Shown here: in pieces, positions 22,401-29,560 of the stretch
Position numbering within the stretch: the stretch's first letter is position 1
Layout: the number at the start of each line of letters is the position of its first letter
Origin: an uncultured Gammaproteobacteria bacterium
Lineage (GTDB): Bacteria; Patescibacteriota; Microgenomatia; Levybacterales; UBA12049
DNA: 64,000 nt
Assembly (NCBI GenBank): GCA_964491185.1
Contig: CAZBFH010000001.1
Location: 16,739-80,738 of the forward strand
Direction: 5' to 3'
Position numbers and translations under genes: made by a program
The notes under the pieces: model-generated
Seen by the model: only the letters and a program-made list of their open reading frames with translations
Databases searched by the model: none
Told to the model about the DNA's origin: nothing

Positions 22401-22753
22401 AAAATAAGAAGAATACCATGAATCGTAGCTACCCCTCCAATTATCCAGAAAGCTAAAATTGGTAAAGTAAGAGGAGTTTTAAGTGTAATTTTCTTTCTGA
22501 CAAGTAACGTTAGCCAAGAAAGAATAACAAATAAAATAACGAAATCCTCGACTCTTATATAAACCCACGTATTCTGTATATCAAGAAGTGGAAGCTTAGG
22601 ATAGAGAGGAATAAATAAAAGCAGGAAAAGACTTTCAAGAAACAAAATGTTTTCCCAAATCCAAGTTAAAGCTTTTCCTGGTTTAGTTTTTAAGAAGCTT
22701 GAGAGCTTGACCATAAGTATTTGTATAATAACTATTATTAGATATCTTACCAA
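19481..22753 (-). CDS. Very large polytopic membrane protein: O-antigen ligase/polymerase (Wzy_C)-like N-terminal half fused to a second multi-TM module
   Basis: 1090 aa. TVSRVSFFVLFV segment resembles the Wzy_C (T.SRg) core. A soluble middle domain is followed by a second TM bundle (about residues 600-1000). The start overlaps the upstream GT2 by about 70 nt. Confidence 0.45.
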   Translation of the reverse strand: MVRYLIIVIIQILMVKLSSFLKTKPGKALTWIWENILFLESLFLLLFIPLYPKLPLLDIQNTWVYIRVEDFVILFVILSWLTLLVRKKITLKTPLTLPILAFWIIGGVATIHGILLIFPTISNAYPNVAFLSLIRHIEYLSLFFIGYQGMKNKKHMPVIVSVVVITLIGVIAYGFGQKYLGFPAFLTMNEEFAKGTPITLSALSRVPSTFAGHYDLAAYLVLIIPILVSLSLGLKNLIIRIILACISFAGVMLLLMTVSRVSFFVLFVSLGFLLFFQKRKLVIALIPVILIGGTFFVTFQSSLFDRFKSTVSEADVLVDAATGESVGHVRFVPKEYFKDKIVLQRTVRDQEELANAIKESQKESIDPDDAIILPYRLIPGEVPILTAVNISTGENLPQGTGYTNLYLSPVIKRADSFFIEIPQNLQSSSSGQALILKGNFIVKRASAYDLSFTTRFQGEWPRAIEAFKKNLLIGSGYGSVSLAVDNNFLRILGEVGILGFLAFFLLFLILGIYVKKIYPDIDSPLAKSFVLGFVAGVIGLSLNAVLIDVFEASKIAFLLWILVGIVFGILRLYQVHSFTLSNEVKKALGSSYAIVLYLFITSVVLFSPMLNNYFVADDFTWLRWAADCTNCSQVHLFTNYFLNSDGFFYRPGMKIYFYFMYQIFWLNQVVYHLSSLMLHFTAIALFFIIARKIFKDIKLAAFSAFTFLVLSGPLENIFWISSIGHLFNGVFSLLALLLFIFWDEKRKIYYLVGAILSVCFALMFHELGVVAPALMIAYKIYKSGFTASLKTLPKQFENYLIFIPVAGYLLLRVVSKSHWFSGDYSYDPLNLPFNIIGNIFGYFSLGLIGPMSLSFYNSVRIFARENLIIFVIIIPLVVLVGFFAYKVFSKLFEASEKKIMAFGLMFFVISLLPFLGLGNMTSRYSYLSTMGLVFIFTILFKKLHQYLLNSGREIALGASTVVIIVFALFHLIQNQSTFFNWHEAGNKTKRFFISMESLYTSYWSQVDTEFHFVNVPTKDGQAWVFPVGLPDAVWFAFKNDDAKIFIHSDEKSAIEAAGTSLAHPVFRFTDGGNVEEVDRKIKPTSDLIMP

Positions 22754-23564
22754 ATAAGTAAACCATCCCAGCTTTTATAAAAAGAGTAAGTCTCACAATC
22801 TGATAACTTAAACCACCTTGGTGTTTTTTATAAAAATATAAAACTCCTTTATAGATATTTATGATTGCAAAACCTTTATTACTACTACCCTGCTCTAGGT
22901 GAATAGTAGAAACATCTGGGAAAAAATACGTTTTATATCCTTTTTTCTTTGCTCTAAAAGAGAGCTCCATATCCTCAACATACATAAAAATATTCCTATC
23001 AAATCCTTCAATTTCGTTAAATAATTTTTTATTAACCATTAGACTTGCTCCAGCCACCCAGTCAACTTTACAAATTTTATCCGGACTAGATTTTAACAGA
23101 CCAAACCTTTCTCCACCAAAAATCATAATGAAAAAATTTAAAAGTGTATAGAATTTTCCTACAGAAACCTGAGGCGACCCGTCAGAATTAGTAAGCTTTC
23201 CCCCTAGAATCACCACATCATTATGTTCTTTAAGAAAATCTGCCATTTTAAGATAACCCTTATCCTTGGTCTCTGTATCAGAATTTAAGAATAAAACATA
23301 ATCGCCTTTTGAGCTTTCAGCTCCAAGATTACATCCTTTTCCAAAGCCTAAATTTTCCAAACTTTTTATTAGTTTTATTTTTTTATGAGAATTAGTAAAA
23401 TTCTCAACTTCTTTAAGATTTTTTTCACTTGATGCATTATCGACAATAATTATTTCAATTTTTTCGTTTTTTATTTCTTGATCAAATTGAAGAATCAATG
23501 AATCTATGCATTTCTTGATTAACTGAGGCGTGTTATAGCTTAAAATTACAATTGATAACGTCAT
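22683..23564 (-). CDS. Glycosyltransferase family 2
   Basis: 293 aa. LSIVILSYNTPQLIKKCIDSL, D-x-D and ED motifs. Confidence 0.75.
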   Translation of the reverse strand: MTLSIVILSYNTPQLIKKCIDSLILQFDQEIKNEKIEIIIVDNASSEKNLKEVENFTNSHKKIKLIKSLENLGFGKGCNLGAESSKGDYVLFLNSDTETKDKGYLKMADFLKEHNDVVILGGKLTNSDGSPQVSVGKFYTLLNFFIMIFGGERFGLLKSSPDKICKVDWVAGASLMVNKKLFNEIEGFDRNIFMYVEDMELSFRAKKKGYKTYFFPDVSTIHLEQGSSNKGFAIINIYKGVLYFYKKHQGGLSYQIVRLTLFIKAGMVYLFGKISNNSYYTNTYGQALKLLKN

Positions 23565-24118
23565 TATCTAAACCAAGCAGCTCTACCTAATTTATATTGG
23601 AGGTCTTTATTGGATCTTTCTCCTATTTCTTTTGCTGGAACTCCACCTACGATTTTGAATTCAGAAACATTTTTGGTGACTACTGCTCCTGCTGCTACCA
23701 CGGCACCTTTACCTATGCTTACACCTGGTAAAATTATTGCTCGAGGGCCTATGAACACATAATCCTCGATTTCAACAGGCGCAGTAACAGCTTTGAAATT
23801 TTCATCTTTTATATCGTGTTCTGAGTTATAAATCATTACCCCCGTTGCGATATCTACGTGGTTACCAATCCGGAGCTTGTCTCTTCCATCTAAAACTGCC
23901 CATTCGCCGACTATAGTATCATTCCCAATCTCAATTCCACCTGGCTTATAGGTGGAAAGAGCCATGTGAATAGTGGAGCCTCTCCCAATCTTCATTCCAA
24001 AAACTCTATAGGAAAAGCGCCTTAAATGATGACTCGGAACAAACCCAATTATCCAAATGAGAAATCCATTTATGAATTCTAAAATTATTGCATTCATTCT
24101 TCTGTTTATCTTACCCAC
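23564..24118 (-). CDS. Hexapeptide-repeat (LbH) sugar O-acetyltransferase with N-terminal hydrophobic helix
   Basis: 184 aa. Repeated [LIV]G-x4 hexapeptides (IGNHVDIATGVMI..IGPRAIILPGVSIGKGAVVAAGAVV). WcaF/NodL-like. Confidence 0.72.
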   Translation of the reverse strand: MGKINRRMNAIILEFINGFLIWIIGFVPSHHLRRFSYRVFGMKIGRGSTIHMALSTYKPGGIEIGNDTIVGEWAVLDGRDKLRIGNHVDIATGVMIYNSEHDIKDENFKAVTAPVEIEDYVFIGPRAIILPGVSIGKGAVVAAGAVVTKNVSEFKIVGGVPAKEIGERSNKDLQYKLGRAAWFR

Positions 24119-25244
24119 GACCTACCCCCTCTAGTACTTCTAAAGTCTGTCTTGCTGATTTTTCCCAGGAGAATTTTTCTACTTGTTTTTTACCCTTTTC
24201 GATCAGCTGCTTCTTAAGATTATTATCTCCTAATAATTTTTTCATTTTATTAGCTATGTCATCTGCGTCATTTGGATCCACATAAAGAGCAGCGTCTCCT
24301 CCTACCTCAGGTAGACTTGATACGTTACTCGTTATGACAGGTGTTTCATAACTCATAGCTTCAAGAACCGGAATACCAAAACCTTCATAAAGACTTGGAA
24401 GAATAAAAAATTCCGCATTCCTGTAAATTGCTGGCAAATCCTCATCTGAAACATTTTCTAAAAACAAAACTTTGTCTTTTACGTTATATTTTTCAGGAGC
24501 ATTTAATATCTCTTCAAATTGCCAGCCGCGTCTTCCGACGATCACCAAACTAACATCAGTCTCAATCTTAGAATATGCTTCGATAAGACGCTCTATATTT
24601 TTTCTTGGCTGAAGAGTACCTACAAAAAGAATATATTTATTTTTTATTCCAAATTTTTTTTCTAAATCTTCCATTTTCAGCTTATTGTTAACAGGCAAAC
24701 TAGTATTGATTCCTGGGTAAATTACCTCTATTTTATTACCTGAAACACCGTATTCTTTGATTATATCACTCTTACTCGACTCACTAATTGTCAGAATCTT
24801 CTCGGATTTTCTAGCTGAATATTTCGTCCATTTTTTAAGCTGAATTAAATCTTTTTTCTTAAAAAGCTGTGGAAAATAAATATATGAAACGTCTAGGATG
24901 GAGACTACAGATTTTTTAGGTGAGAATATTGGTAAATAGTGAGTTGGGGTGAAAAAAACATCAAGCGATCTATTTTTCAATAAATTTAATGATAAAGATG
25001 TAATAGTCCACATTTTTCTAGAGGGTAACACGGTATACCTCCATTTATCAGTTGCTTTGGGAAGATCATTTGTCGGACTTTGGGGCATATAGATTTCGTA
25101 GTTATTTTCTTTATCAAGTTTTGCAAGATTTGTTAAAAGCTCAAAGCAATAAACACTACTTCCTACTCTATTTGGTAGACCAGTGTCTTTGTTATAACCA
25201 AACCTTGGAACCACTGCTTCGTAACCATTAATACCTATTTTCAT
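24111..25244 (-). CDS. Glycosyltransferase family 4
   Basis: 377 aa. EGFGIPVLEAMSYETPVITSNVSSLPEVGGDAALYVDP. Confidence 0.8.
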   Translation of the reverse strand: MKIGINGYEAVVPRFGYNKDTGLPNRVGSSVYCFELLTNLAKLDKENNYEIYMPQSPTNDLPKATDKWRYTVLPSRKMWTITSLSLNLLKNRSLDVFFTPTHYLPIFSPKKSVVSILDVSYIYFPQLFKKKDLIQLKKWTKYSARKSEKILTISESSKSDIIKEYGVSGNKIEVIYPGINTSLPVNNKLKMEDLEKKFGIKNKYILFVGTLQPRKNIERLIEAYSKIETDVSLVIVGRRGWQFEEILNAPEKYNVKDKVLFLENVSDEDLPAIYRNAEFFILPSLYEGFGIPVLEAMSYETPVITSNVSSLPEVGGDAALYVDPNDADDIANKMKKLLGDNNLKKQLIEKGKKQVEKFSWEKSARQTLEVLEGVGRG

Positions 25245-25245
25245 A

Positions 25246-25818
25246 TTAGATCGAGGGATAAATTACTTTTATTTTTTCTTTATCAATTTTTAGAATTTCC
25301 TCTATGTCTTTCTTGCTCGATTCTGAAATCGTAAAAACAATACTAGATTCTTTTTTAAGCCACTTAAGTTTTCTTTTTTGAGATGCAACAATATTTGGAG
25401 AGATCAATAGCCTCAAAGGACTAAATTCTGTTTTACTGTGTGTTTCTTCTGGGTATTTGTAAACAATTAAATCATATATAACTGTCGCTTTTTTTGCGCT
25501 TCTTGTAGGCGGTTCTGTCCAGTCAGATGTAATAAATATATCTACATCTCCAATCAACCACTCAATTGGAAGAATATGTAGCCTATTCCAAATAAAATCT
25601 AAAGCAAGAGGTGGAAACTTAAAAGTTTTTATAGTAACCCTTGGACTTTCCTGAACATTAAATAAAGAAAGATCTAAATCTCGTCTTAAAGATGAGAAAA
25701 ATAAAACATATTCATTTTTCGTATCCAGTTTTAGTAGATTCTCAACAAGATTAGCGAGATAATTCGCTACTCCAGTTTTTGAATACACAACTTGGCTAAC
25801 ATCAATTCCTATTTTCAT
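25246..25818 (-). CDS. GT4 N-terminal-domain-only fragment (190 aa). Truncated paralog or gene remnant, possibly a split GT.
   Basis: MKIGIDVSQVVYSKTGVANYLANLVENL resembles the N-terminus of the GT4 at 14881-15987. The ORF ends at IKVIYPSI, exactly where the C-terminal GT-B domain would begin. Its stop TAA is 1 nt before the ATG of the complete GT4 downstream. Confidence 0.45.
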   Translation of the reverse strand: MKIGIDVSQVVYSKTGVANYLANLVENLLKLDTKNEYVLFFSSLRRDLDLSLFNVQESPRVTIKTFKFPPLALDFIWNRLHILPIEWLIGDVDIFITSDWTEPPTRSAKKATVIYDLIVYKYPEETHSKTEFSPLRLLISPNIVASQKRKLKWLKKESSIVFTISESSKKDIEEILKIDKEKIKVIYPSI

Positions 25819-26046
25819 CTAATTATTATGACGAAGTTTAGCTAAATTTAAAATGACCGCAAATGAAAACAGCAAGAAAGAGAACCAAACTAATTTTTGT
25901 GCTGTAAAAAATACCCATTGGCTAAAAAGAGGAATTGAAACGATCAAGCAAGAGAGTCCCACGATAGCAAACATTTTTGGATCTCTTTTTATAAAGAGCA
26001 ACAGAAAGACTGCTATAAATAGTGTGTCCTGTGGTTTAAGATCCAT
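25819..26046 (-). CDS. Small 2-TM membrane protein directly downstream of the CsbB/GtrB-like GT2
   Basis: 75 aa with two hydrophobic helices. Position suggests an accessory role (flippase or partner) for the polyprenyl-P-sugar synthase. Confidence 0.35.
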   Translation of the reverse strand: MDLKPQDTLFIAVFLLLFIKRDPKMFAIVGLSCLIVSIPLFSQWVFFTAQKLVWFSFLLFSFAVILNLAKLRHNN

Positions 26047-26051
26047 TTGAA

Positions 26052-27032
26052 TTAACTGGAATATTTTAAGAGAACCTTTGATTCGCTTTCGTTCTTACTG
26101 TTTATATTTAAAACCAAGTCAGCAATGAGCCCTGTAAATCCAGCCTGAAGACCAGAAATAATTAAAAGCATACCTAAAAATAAAAGCGGTCTTCTTCCTA
26201 TGGATTCTCCCTGAAAATGAATAAAAGAAAGATAAAGAAGGATTACGAGACCTAGAAAAACTAACAACCCACCAAAAAATCCAAAAAAATGAAGCGGACG
26301 CTTACTATATTTACTTAAAAATACCATTGTCATCATGTCAGGCATTTGAGTAAGAACTTTTATAGCTCCGTATTTAGATTTTCCCCAGCGTCTTTCATCA
26401 TGAACCACTGGAACCTCAGTTACCCTAAATCCTTCTTGTGCAACCAGAAGCGGGATAAATCTATGCATTCCTCCATATAGATTTACTGACTTTGCAGCTT
26501 CACTTATGTATAGTTTCAATCCACAATTATAATCATGAAGTTTTACTCCCCAGAATGTGGACGCCACCAGATTAAAGACCTTTGAAAAAATAATTTTAGT
26601 AATTGAATCTTTTCTCTCTTTTCTCCAGCCAGAAACCATATCATAACCCTCTTTATGCTTTTCTATTAGCTTGTGGACCTCTGATGGCTTATCTTGAAGA
26701 TCTGCATCCATCGTGACTATCAAATCCCCTTTTGCTTTTTGAAAACCAAATGTCAAAGCTTCTGCTTTTCCATGATTTCGTCTAAATGAATAAATACTAA
26801 TATTTGAATCTTTCTTCTCAAGGTCTTTAATCAAACTCAATGTCGTGTCATTTGAACCATCATCTATAAAAACAATTTCGTATTCTTTAGACAGAATCTT
26901 TGCGTGTTTTGTGAGCTCTTCGTAGAAATGAAGAATACTTTCCTCTTCGTTAAAAACTGGAATAACGTAACTAATCATAATTGCGGATCTAAACCTAATT
27001 TTATCATTTCTGAAGCTTTTATCAAAATGCAC
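26052..27032 (-). CDS. Polyprenyl-phosphate sugar synthase (GtrB/CsbB/DPM1-like GT2 with C-terminal TM hairpin)
   Basis: 326 aa. ISYVIPVFNEEESI..IVFIDDGSNDTT GT2 core plus two C-terminal TM helices (HFFGFFGGLLVFLGLV..LLFLGMLLIISGLQAGFTGLIADLV). The true start may be the internal MISYVIPV. Confidence 0.78.
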   Translation of the reverse strand: MHFDKSFRNDKIRFRSAIMISYVIPVFNEEESILHFYEELTKHAKILSKEYEIVFIDDGSNDTTLSLIKDLEKKDSNISIYSFRRNHGKAEALTFGFQKAKGDLIVTMDADLQDKPSEVHKLIEKHKEGYDMVSGWRKERKDSITKIIFSKVFNLVASTFWGVKLHDYNCGLKLYISEAAKSVNLYGGMHRFIPLLVAQEGFRVTEVPVVHDERRWGKSKYGAIKVLTQMPDMMTMVFLSKYSKRPLHFFGFFGGLLVFLGLVILLYLSFIHFQGESIGRRPLLFLGMLLIISGLQAGFTGLIADLVLNINSKNESESKVLLKYSS

Positions 27033-27043
27033 TAGTTATTTTA

Positions 27044-27071
27044 TTGACAATCTAATAAAAGTATATATAAT
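27044..27071 (+). promoter_or_regulatory. Perfect consensus sigma70 promoter TTGACA-16-TATAAT, 11 nt upstream of the 27083 ATG
   Basis: ttgaca at 27044-27049 and tataat at 27066-27071, read directly. There is no SD sequence before the ATG. Confidence 0.5.
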
Positions 27072-27082
27072 ACTGCTCGAGT

Positions 27083-27619
27083 ATGATAACAGAAGCTGTT
27101 CCGGGCTTAAGACCCTTACACGAAACGCCAATACCAGAAAGAGATAGAATTGAACCTTTACTCCTGGCACTAGGAGTTACAAATGTTATACTTGACTATC
27201 CTTTTCCAAAATCTCCTACAGGAGTGAGCTGGGCATCACCAGGTCATTTAGACGAAAGGGTAAGAACAGCGGGCACTGATGGAATTGAACTAAGAAGATC
27301 TACCAAAAGGATGGGACCCACTCTTAAATACGCCACATACCCAGGCGTCTTTACATCAGCTACGCCTCACTGGGTCGAGCAGGAATTTGGAGAAATTGAA
27401 CATCCATCATATCAAGGAGACGATGCTACTTATACTTTTACAAGAGCAACATTTTCTGAAGGACAATATAGGATCCATACTCTTGTTGAAAGAACAGAAG
27501 GAGACGGCGTAGAAGCAGATTTTTCCGTTAAAGACTTGAGATATTTACTCCGTCCCCCAATAGAAACTGCAAAACAAACGCCTGCATCAAGACTTTCTTG
27601 GGCTGTAAGACAAAGCTAA
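27083..27619 (+). CDS. Orphan hypothetical protein. The only plus-strand gene in the window, with GC markedly higher than its flanks.
   Basis: 178-aa ORF with a non-repetitive, globular-looking sequence. Consensus promoter upstream. Its 3' end overlaps the stop of the convergent 27587-29560 gene by 33 nt. Confidence 0.45.
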   Translation: MITEAVPGLRPLHETPIPERDRIEPLLLALGVTNVILDYPFPKSPTGVSWASPGHLDERVRTAGTDGIELRRSTKRMGPTLKYATYPGVFTSATPHWVEQEFGEIEHPSYQGDDATYTFTRATFSEGQYRIHTLVERTEGDGVEADFSVKDLRYLLRPPIETAKQTPASRLSWAVRQS

Positions 27620-29560
27620 ATTCTTAATTAGGATAGAAATCAAACTTATTAAAACTACAGCACTTATCACTAATCCAATATTTACAAATTCCTGAGGTTT
27701 GTAATAAATTTCGAGGCCATAATTCCCATCTTTTGGCAATCTAAAACTGTTAAGATTTTTCTGATATGCTTCACTTCTTACCTCGAAATCCTCCCCTCTT
27801 GCTACCCAACCACTATCAAATCCTTGAGAAAAAACTAGCAAATCTCCTTTTTTAGCATTTTCTAATTTTAATTTATAAAGCGTAGGATTCTTAAATTCCC
27901 AGGAAATAATTAAGCTTCTATCTAAGTCATCCAAGAGAAGTGGTGCTGAAAAGAGATCTGTCTGGGAATACGTCAGATAAGTTTTAATACCTTCGTCAAT
28001 GCTTGTTCTTTGAAGATAATCAATTTTTTCAATTTTATTTATTACCTTTCTTCTTTCAACTTCACTATATTTTCGATCTTTCAAAAAAATTTCTTCATCT
28101 GGATCGGTTGGAATTATGATAAGTCCTACTGAATACCTAGCTAATTCTTCTTCACTGATTTTTTCTATATTTCTCCCCTTGAATAAAACTTCAGAATCGG
28201 ATGACGGAATTGATGGATCAAAATATCCATACTTTTGTCTCTTTGGGACCCAAAGAACTCTTGAAAAAGAATATTGCGAGGAATTATTCTTAAAATTTTT
28301 CAATTCAGAATTTAACTGAACATAGTCCACTGGAATTTCTTTTGGTTTAAAAATCCCGATTAGGTCACCGCTCCAAAATGGCTTGAGAATTAGGAAAAGA
28401 AAAATAACAAATGCGCCCACAATAAGATATCTAAATTTCTCAAATTTATCAGAAATAGAATTAAGGAAATACGGAATAAGAATGCTAAATGAAATTGCAA
28501 TTAATAAATAAAATTTTGTAGAATCCCTAAACAAAGAAAATCCCGGTAATTTTTCAAATAAAAAAATATAAATATCTCCAAAGGGATCACTTGCTCCCTT
28601 TCCTAAAAAAATGCCCACCAAACCGACAACTACAAAAAATAAAATTTCTTTTTTTGCCTTAAACATTAATGACCCAAAGGCTAAAATTGGAAGAACTAAA
28701 AATTCAGGTCTTTGAAAATAAATTTTCCCAAAAATATTTTCAGGCCAGTTGGGATGAAGAAAAGAAATTGTATTTTCTATTGTCGCAAAGCTTAAAAATT
28801 TTACCCCCGCTACAGACGAATAAGAACCCACGAATTGAGCACTTGACCCTAATATAAATGACATAATAGCTGGTAAAATCCAGTATGAATTTATTGCACC
28901 AGCGATCAAAAAGTTTATTAAAATAAAACTTATTTTTTTTAAGTTTATTTTTTTAATAAAAAACGTGAAGTACAAAAATGCGATTAGAAAAGTGAGCACT
29001 GCTACTCTTGGATCAAGCGCAATAACAAACCCCGATATCAAACAAGAAACAAACAAATTTTTATATGTCGTTTCATCAAATAAATTAATTATTCTTAGTA
29101 AAACTAATGGCGCTAATGCATATGCAAATGCGATTCCAAATTGTCCACCTCCAACTATTAAAAGGATATACGTATTAAATGTGAAAATTATTGAAGACAA
29201 ACTTCTAAACAAATCGTTTTTAATAAAAGGTTTTGAAAATTTAAAAGAAGAAAAGATTGATAAGGCAATAAAAGGCAAAAGCCAAAATATCCTTTGAGAA
29301 AACCACCAAGGAATATCTAACGAATTGGAAATAAAGTAAACAAAATTTGCATATAGATCAATCCACATCGTCTTTAAGGCTGATCCTCCAATTCCTCCAT
29401 TTCCCATGTAATCCCAAGATAAAGACCAGAAAGGAAAATAATCACGAGATTCTCTAAAGAGCAGGGGCCAATCATGAGCCACAATTACATATTTTGAAAG
29501 AAACGGCAAACAAAAAATAATTACAAATACAAGAAGCGGTGTGAGCTTAACTATCCTCAT
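27587..29560 (-). CDS. YfhO-like polytopic GT-C glycosyltransferase with large extracytoplasmic domain and C-terminal TM anchor
   Basis: 657 aa. N-terminal AHDWPLLFRESRDYF loop motif and multi-TM core with GASDPFGDIYIFLFEKLPGFSLFRD. C-terminal SQGFDSGWVARGEDFEV...LEIYYKPQEF followed by a final TM helix. Paralog of 29878-33318 and 59872-61524. Confidence 0.55.
   Translation of the reverse strand: MRIVKLTPLLVFVIIFCLPFLSKYVIVAHDWPLLFRESRDYFPFWSLSWDYMGNGGIGGSALKTMWIDLYANFVYFISNSLDIPWWFSQRIFWLLPFIALSIFSSFKFSKPFIKNDLFRSLSSIIFTFNTYILLIVGGGQFGIAFAYALAPLVLLRIINLFDETTYKNLFVSCLISGFVIALDPRVAVLTFLIAFLYFTFFIKKINLKKISFILINFLIAGAINSYWILPAIMSFILGSSAQFVGSYSSVAGVKFLSFATIENTISFLHPNWPENIFGKIYFQRPEFLVLPILAFGSLMFKAKKEILFFVVVGLVGIFLGKGASDPFGDIYIFLFEKLPGFSLFRDSTKFYLLIAISFSILIPYFLNSISDKFEKFRYLIVGAFVIFLFLILKPFWSGDLIGIFKPKEIPVDYVQLNSELKNFKNNSSQYSFSRVLWVPKRQKYGYFDPSIPSSDSEVLFKGRNIEKISEEELARYSVGLIIIPTDPDEEIFLKDRKYSEVERRKVINKIEKIDYLQRTSIDEGIKTYLTYSQTDLFSAPLLLDDLDRSLIISWEFKNPTLYKLKLENAKKGDLLVFSQGFDSGWVARGEDFEVRSEAYQKNLNSFRLPKDGNYGLEIYYKPQEFVNIGLVISAVVLISLISILIKNLALSYSPRKS

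Follow-up and report, generated by a model that had tools for sequence, protein, structure and literature searches.

The window (the whole stretch of DNA analysed, 64,000 nucleotides, positions 1–64000) has an overall GC content of 33%, and all of its 56 substantial genes other than the one examined here lie on one strand. About 50 kb of it is an envelope-glycosylation array, in which giant GT-C/PMT_2/YfhO-like membrane proteins of 553–1146 aa, one of them carrying an F5/8 type C domain, are encoded together with GT2, GT4, hexapeptide transferase and Polysacc_synt genes, and cell-wall genes (for PBP and Mur ligase) are found at one end. The organism is a CPR (Patescibacteria) bacterium, its one named relative being a Candidatus Roizmanbacteria MAG. 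The glycosylation gene cluster of a related locus, L001/L010 (GCA_964565795.1, CAZMGC010000010.1), is syntenic with those of loci whose GT2 cluster contains a Candidatus Roizmanbacteria protein, and its GT2 is 92–97% identical to theirs; its label, 'uncultured Gammaproteobacteria bacterium', is probably wrong.

The gene of interest is an ORF for 178 aa on the plus strand, between a GT2 and a GT-C gene (Table 1). It is the sole plus-strand ORF of at least 100 aa in the window that is not nested in a minus-strand gene and, with this size limit, the first-pass annotation was right to single it out in an otherwise minus-strand window. Among 5.8 billion proteins searched, the product had only two close homologues (69% and 72% identity). 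Both are encoded at the same junction, GT2(−)/ORF(+)/GT-C(−), in the loci L001 and L005. Samples SRR16481182 and SRR31051132 contain sequence identical to the window.

Table 1. Coordinates of the ORF, its signals and its neighbours in the window
Feature	Coordinates	Strand	Evidence
Coding sequence, 178 aa, C-terminal-domain short form of the CPR family	27083..27619	+	ORF call, codon usage, dN/dS, profile matches
Exact sigma-70 consensus promoter of the ORF, TTGACA-16-TATAAT	27044..27071	+	12/12 match, kept in L001 and L005
Stretch from −10 hexamer to ATG, 11 nt	27072..27082	+	read from sequence
Segment without counterpart in ORF-less relatives, about 590–600 nt	27010..27613	.	junction sequences and alignments
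GT2 polyprenyl-phosphate glycosyltransferase-like gene, 308 aa from ATG 26978; downstream neighbour	26052..26978	−	PF00535, 2.3e-32
GT2 promoter-like site, TTGATA-16-(TG)a-TAAAAT	26998..27025	−	10/12 with TG
GT-C-like membrane glycosyltransferase gene, 657 aa; upstream neighbour	27587..29560	−	weak GT-C_AftD match
Convergent overlap of ORF and GT-C gene, 33 nt	27587..27619	.	ORF calls; also 33 nt in L001 and L005

Flanking genes and promoter

The GT2 product matched the ArnC model at 4.5e-50 and the PgfS model at 1.9e-44, in both cases under the equivalog cut-off, and belongs to a cluster (at least 90% identity) that includes a Candidatus Roizmanbacteria protein. The longest ORF for this gene begins at a GTG at 27032 and encodes 326 aa. 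As most of the 15 listed members of the cluster are called as 308 aa, the GTG start is probably over-extended and the true start is likely to be the ATG at 26978. The placement of the ORF between GT2 and GT-C, made at first reading, was correct, though the GT2 start used there was probably not. The extra 18 codons of the longer call (26979–27032) overlap the promoter-like region.

The two flanking genes correspond to the known extracytoplasmic glycosylation pairs of a GT2 (GtrB/CsbB/ArnC-like polyprenyl-phosphate sugar synthase) and a GT-C (YfhO/GtrC/AftD-like) gene, and in relatives they are directly adjacent. The ORF is not a component of such systems, and most relatives lack it. Such systems usually have the GtrA flippase, a small polytopic membrane protein, as their third component; the ORF product (20.0 kDa), by contrast, is predicted to be soluble and acidic (pI about 5.75, GRAVY −0.51), with no transmembrane (TM) segment (Kyte-Doolittle maximum of 1.31 for a 19-residue window); neither multiple TM helices nor a GtrA Pfam domain were found in it.

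On the other side of GT2, a 75-aa hydrophobic ORF (25819–26046, minus strand) lies directly downstream and is called in L011 and L096, and a 65-aa ORF on the opposite strand (25853–26050) is called at the same place in L012, L013 and L095. The 75-aa membrane peptide looks like the real gene.

The overlap of the ORF with the convergent GT-C gene, described originally as YfhO-like, was found as reported and encodes the C-termini of both proteins, which end in SRLSWAVRQS (ORF) and LALSYSPRKS (GT-C). Window and L001 are identical at 32 of its 33 positions.

The exact promoter upstream of the ORF had also been read correctly. It is the only exact match to TTGACA-N16-TATAAT in the 64 kb, where 0.03 would be expected by chance, and in L001 and L005 both hexamers and the 16-nt spacing are identical with a spacer of different sequence. 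Consensus hexamers, a spacing within 16–18 nt and retention in orthologues, as looked for in a sigma-70 promoter, were thus all found. The −10 hexamer is 11, 11 and 13 nt from the ATG in the three lineages that carry the ORF, and with the usual distance of 6–8 nt from the −10 hexamer to the transcription start, a leader of about 3–6 nt from a putative start site is predicted. Leaderless or short-leader mRNAs are a known class of transcripts, which the ORF resembles in the position of its ATG in all three lineages and in having no Shine–Dalgarno (SD) motif, though the predicted leader of 3–6 nt differs from a true 5′-AUG.

The absence of an SD motif, also pointed out in the first-pass annotation, is normal here because only 8 of the 56 window genes have an SD-like motif at −20 to −3, and by this count the genome appears to be mostly SD-independent in initiation. 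One study (PMC9297842) reports loss of the anti-SD motif for a Parcubacteria subgroup only, and the statement for this genome is therefore based on our own count in the window. It is likely that the ORF is transcribed alone from its own promoter as a near-leaderless mRNA, which would be translated without an SD motif, as would most genes of this genome.

Coding signal and protein family

The ORF has the highest GC content of any gene in the window (42.6%, against 33.0 ± 3.3% in the other 56 genes), and the initial impression of a GC-richer gene was accurate. However, when codon usage was compared, as had been suggested, GC3 and codon usage were found to be native. The excess is confined to codon positions 1 and 2 (GC1 0.536, GC2 0.497), GC3 is 0.246 against a genome mean of 0.252 ± 0.027, and the codon-usage log-likelihood of the frame is 0.245 against 0.233 ± 0.044 for native genes, with negative values in the other five frames. 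The product is enriched 2.1–2.5-fold in T, P, R and H, and N, K, I and F are down to 0.1–0.5-fold. As GC3 is native while GC1 and GC2 are raised, the GC excess stems from the amino acid composition of the product, and thus gives no sign of foreign DNA.

Comparison of the ORF with its two orthologues gave pairwise dN/dS values of 0.16–0.19 with dS > 1. Substitutions at the three codon positions numbered 35/30/84, 33/22/78 and 37/33/84, and no indel breaks the frame. The ORF products of the window and L001 are 72% identical, in line with the 70% of the adjacent GT-C. Judged by these patterns, the ORF is shown to be a real, selected and old protein-coding gene and, as the protein is under purifying selection, it is not a mere by-product of transcription. 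The first-pass annotation had held that such conservation, in an ordinary core gene of the lineage, would argue against its view of the ORF; conservation under purifying selection was indeed found at homologous loci, but the gene is accessory and not core.

A mis-called structured RNA gene, GC-rich, promoter-driven and without an SD motif, had been another suggestion, and the local GC excess in an AT-rich genome, the strong promoter and the missing SD motif would all agree with it. However, no Rfam match was found in the whole window at gathering thresholds, and none that was credible locally at E values up to 10. ARAGORN found no tRNA or tmRNA, and single-sequence folding of the ORF region was no better than that of shuffled sequence (z = −0.52). 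The native GC3 with raised GC1 and GC2, the codon usage, the dN/dS values, the frame-preserving indels, the accumulation of substitutions at third positions and the distant protein homologues described below also stand against an RNA gene, and this reading was rejected as, for practical purposes, refuted.

No match to Pfam, NCBIfam, PHROGs or PADLOC was obtained with the ORF product, the PADLOC models of anti-phage defence proteins also gave none for three long-form relatives (see below), and PDB sequence-profile searches returned nothing under E = 0.1. The proposal that the product has no recognisable family is therefore upheld for curated libraries. However, the homology search that the first-pass annotation had recommended did yield distant relatives from CPR bacteria when a three-sequence profile was used against 1.84 billion representatives, with 12 matches at E values of 1.5e-6 to 3e-4. 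A second search, with an alignment of the relatives, extended the family to about 50 members, which overall are 21–33% identical to the window protein. The profile of the family matched the three short forms, themselves part of the alignment behind it, at 1e-51 to 1e-56. Pfam has no model covering this family, and a Pfam search with 53 members gave nothing meaningful, kleA_kleC alone recurring, in 9 of 53 with a best E value of 0.0067 and not in the window ORF.

Most family members are about 350 aa long and have two domains, with the domain that resembles the ORF product at the C-terminus, and every one is annotated as a hypothetical protein. Where the organism is named, it belongs to Niyogibacteria, Kaiserbacteria or Moraniibacteria, which are all CPR (Parcubacteria); examples are HY446_00980 (Candidatus Niyogibacteria MAG), KC906_02290 (Candidatus Kaiserbacteria MAG) and ACWGHO_05580 (Candidatus Moraniibacteriota MAG). 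Conserved motifs of the family are LG(I/V)TN, (R/H)(S/T)T, FGEIExP, YTFxxAxF and LR, and the residues N34, G103, E106, P108, T118, F119 and R153 are invariant or nearly so in the alignments. In the window protein, about 15 residues precede the C-terminal domain, neither the N-terminal domain nor the charged linker is present, and SWAS takes the place of the family DWGH motif. As the N-terminal domain is missing and DWGH is replaced, the window protein is a truncated, divergent short form, and without this domain and motif its activity may differ from that of the long form.

The long forms share with the window gene the homologous C-terminal domain, the motifs and a monocistronic arrangement with its own near-consensus promoter. 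However, they have a 65–80 nt leader and a canonical SD motif, whereas the window gene is almost leaderless and has no SD motif, and they are found in unrelated Parcubacteria neighbourhoods, whereas the window gene is part of a glycosylation cluster in a Roizmanbacteria-like genome. The distant members are stand-alone genes with no recurrent partner in their unrelated neighbourhoods.

An AlphaFold model from 3 sequences was too poor (pLDDT 54) but one from 53 sequences was usable (pLDDT 78), and for the latter no fold match was found among solved or viral structures.

Two unusual members were seen. In P0007 (406 aa), a distant match, the C-terminal beta-meander motif of the family occurs as tandem repeats (..CFTFSETTFLEGAIRVETLVKE..) with five matched stretches, which suggests that the beta-meander unit can be duplicated alone. 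At L008 5551–6630 (GCA_964574655.1), a long-form member is called as two ORFs of 148 and 209 aa; a single tblastn HSP of a full-length relative spans both, with an in-frame TAA (GCA TAA GGC GTG), which could reflect a pseudogene, an assembly error or stop-codon recoding.

Presence, absence and recombination at the junction

The same junction was examined in related genomes, as the first-pass annotation had advised. L011, L012/L013, L014 and L096 have a syntenic cluster, in which only about 28 nt, without any gene, separate the GT-C stop from the GT2 start, and the junction sequence of L015 is of the identical ORF-less type. In L095, GT2 is instead preceded by a DUF218 gene. In the close clade, three lineages (window, L001 and L005, about 70% identical to each other) thus carry the ORF and six do not. 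The ORF-less genomes include the MAGs GCA_020049755.1 and GCA_016215545.1 and the assemblies of SRR22077680, SRR19905787 and SRR22387974. A GT2-anchored scan of metagenome contigs retrieved 80 loci with 58–94% identity, of which 50 were informative in that the sequence continued upstream of GT2 for at least 650 nt. The ORF had no homologue in any of the 50, and a homologue of the 657-aa GT-C abuts GT2 in at least 15 of them. A DNA-pattern scan of metagenome contigs for the junction gave no match. As no informative locus carries the ORF and GT-C abuts GT2 in at least 15, direct GT-C/GT2 adjacency appears to be the ancestral and is by far the commoner state and the ORF-bearing haplotype a derived insertion, the polarity (insertion or loss) being based on these outgroup loci.

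At the junctions seen in L011, L012, L013, L014, L015 and L096, about 12 nt (AAAAAGAGTGGG) are found in place of the inserted segment (Table 1), whose GT2-side end could be placed only to within about 13 nt (27010–27023). The insert holds the ORF, the exact promoter, a replacement GT-C tail, which ends in LALSYSPRKS as opposed to NLAKRVGK in ORF-less loci, and the −35 element of the GT2 promoter-like site. This site is also present in L001, and the ORF-less L012 has TTAGCA-18-TG-TAAAAT at the homologous place. The extended −10 element (TGaTAAAAT) is therefore common to ORF-bearing and ORF-less haplotypes and the TTGATA −35 element lies within the haplotype-specific segment. As both haplotypes have a GT2 promoter-like site, the insert probably lies at a pre-existing transcription-unit boundary. 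An operon boundary of this kind, with GT2 served by its own extended −10 promoter-like site, would explain why the insert is tolerated.

The presence of the ORF is not in step with overall similarity. L001, which carries it, is nearest to L011 and L096, which do not, and the window is nearest to the ORF-less L012. Along the GT-C gene, identity of L001 to L011 and L096 is 0.80–0.97 in the first ~1400 nt and 0.61–0.70 in the last ~600 nt, and then 0.85–0.92 in GT2, whereas L011 and L096 keep a mutual identity of 0.89–0.96 in the GT-C 3′ region and through most of GT2. The last ~600 nt of the window GT-C gene (about 27587–28175) correspond to the part that in L001 forms one divergent haplotype block with the insert. 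In addition, a C-terminal GT-C fragment in L005 is 81% and 73% identical to those of the other ORF-bearing loci against 48–68% for ORF-less loci, and no deletion from the ORF-bearing haplotype could restore the junction sequence of ORF-less loci. Together, the mismatch with similarity, the drop in identity, the grouping of L005 and a junction not derivable by deletion indicate two old haplotypes that were probably exchanged via homologous recombination. The divergent tract in L001, with its sharp changes in identity, argues for movement by homologous recombination and not by transposition. The ORF-bearing haplotype itself appears old, as the three lineages that carry it have diverged to about 70% identity and its codon usage is entirely native.

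Across 22683–29560 of the cluster, the nearest relatives differ from gene to gene among L001, L011, L012 and L014, indicating a mosaic history. In the 293-aa GT2, the window falls with L001 and L011 (76%) and L012 with L014 (89%), and in the 657-aa GT-C and a 377-aa GT4 the window falls with L012.

Exchange of haplotypes by homologous recombination is typical of surface-polysaccharide loci. The locus resembles the accessory-gene indel polymorphisms of O-antigen and capsule clusters in its gene-dependent nearest neighbours, sharply bounded tract and coexisting alleles with and without the ORF. It differs in that the insert encodes an orphan soluble protein antiparallel to the cluster, and no glycosyltransferase or sugar-modifying enzyme.

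A recently acquired gene had been one of the initial proposals. It was correct in that the ORF is an insertion relative to the GT-C/GT2 adjacency, but the insertion is not recent. The polymorphism among close relatives would agree with recent horizontal acquisition or with cargo of a mobile element, phage or plasmid, as would the taxonomy, with Parcubacteria as the named family members but a Roizmanbacteria (Microgenomates) MAG as the one relative of this genome that has a name. However, GC3 and codon usage are native, and the orthologues at the identical site have dS > 1 and are about 70% identical. Only short chance-level matches were found when a target-site duplication or terminal inverted repeat was looked for around the insert, and there is no flanking direct repeat and no recombinase. 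No relatives of the ORF were found in phage or plasmid records (tblastn) or in IMG/VR, viral scans that used either the three close sequences or a long-form member as query gave no match, and PHROGs and PADLOC were likewise negative. No second copy of the promoter motif is present in the window, and the insert lacks the hallmarks of an IS, MITE, integron cassette or prophage remnant. Recent foreign import was therefore rejected as very improbable.

Possible roles of the ORF

The first-pass annotation had also raised an antisense or regulatory module controlling the glycosylation operon. In such a module the insert would act mainly through transcription, with the strong convergent promoter driving antisense RNA into the GT-C operon, and read-through of the operon being antisense to the ORF. 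Haplotypes with and without the ORF would then differ in the expression of surface-glycosylation genes. No terminator-like site was found on either strand in 26500–28200 and, as none separates the convergent genes with their 33-nt overlap, mutual antisense transcription is geometrically possible and may be a secondary effect. A small perfect palindrome, CAAGA-CTT-TCTTG, was seen by eye in the overlap (27587–27600; weaker in L005) but is too short and AT-rich to count as a terminator. The promoter, the sole exact consensus match in the window, is conserved, and expression variants could be selected in a recombining glycan cluster. However, the ORF is under purifying selection and its family consists of stand-alone genes elsewhere, suggesting that the protein itself is what is selected, and the GT2 promoter-like site in both haplotypes suggests that the downstream unit is independent of read-through. 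Nothing was found that speaks directly for regulation, and a regulatory module is considered unlikely.

That the ORF is linked to a GT-C gene with a divergent 3′ end could point to a functional connection with glycosylation. The product might be an accessory factor for the GT-C C-terminal variant to which the ORF is linked, for instance by partnering it in the cytoplasm or by contributing to the specificity or assembly of the GT2/GT-C pathway. Three lineages keep the ORF between GT2 and GT-C, the last ~600 nt of GT-C and the ORF make up a single divergent block in L001, and the GT-C C-terminus of L005 groups with those of ORF-bearing loci. However, physical linkage alone would be expected to give the same pattern, distant members are not located beside GT-C or GT2 genes, and most relatives have a working GT-C/GT2 pair but no ORF. 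The product also has no membrane segment and no glycosyltransferase-related domain, thus this role too is doubtful, though conceivable.

More speculative, and rather improbable, is that the ORF-bearing block, with its strong convergent promoter, an orphan protein whose fold may be new and a linked variant of the GT-C C-terminal region, is a long-lived glycan-variation haplotype of CPR bacteria, shuffled by recombination, in which either the protein or convergent transcription reprogrammes the activity or expression of the GT-C/GT2 pathway, perhaps under phage or host pressure.

The preferred reading, with a probability of roughly 0.7, is that the ORF is a real, selected protein gene of a CPR family that came in as an old, promoter-bearing insertion and belongs to an accessory haplotype moved by recombination, with a role that is not specific to glycosylation. 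The predicted product would be soluble and act in the cytoplasm. As the distant members are stand-alone genes in unrelated neighbourhoods, its role is probably not glycosylation-specific. The ORF is thus an ordinary accessory ORFan of a CPR-specific, uncharacterised family.

Neither the family nor the haplotype changes current understanding. The apparent anomaly at this locus is settled, as there are ordinary reasons for the GC excess, the missing SD motif and the opposite strand, and a structured RNA need no longer be considered. The junction shows clearly how an old haplotype, present in some lineages and absent from others, can be carried in a recombination tract of a CPR surface-glycosylation cluster. 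In addition, a small CPR-restricted family without a Pfam model or a detectable fold relative in the libraries searched is documented, of which the window gene is a naturally truncated single-domain form, and the family of ~350-aa proteins is a reasonable target for structural genomics.
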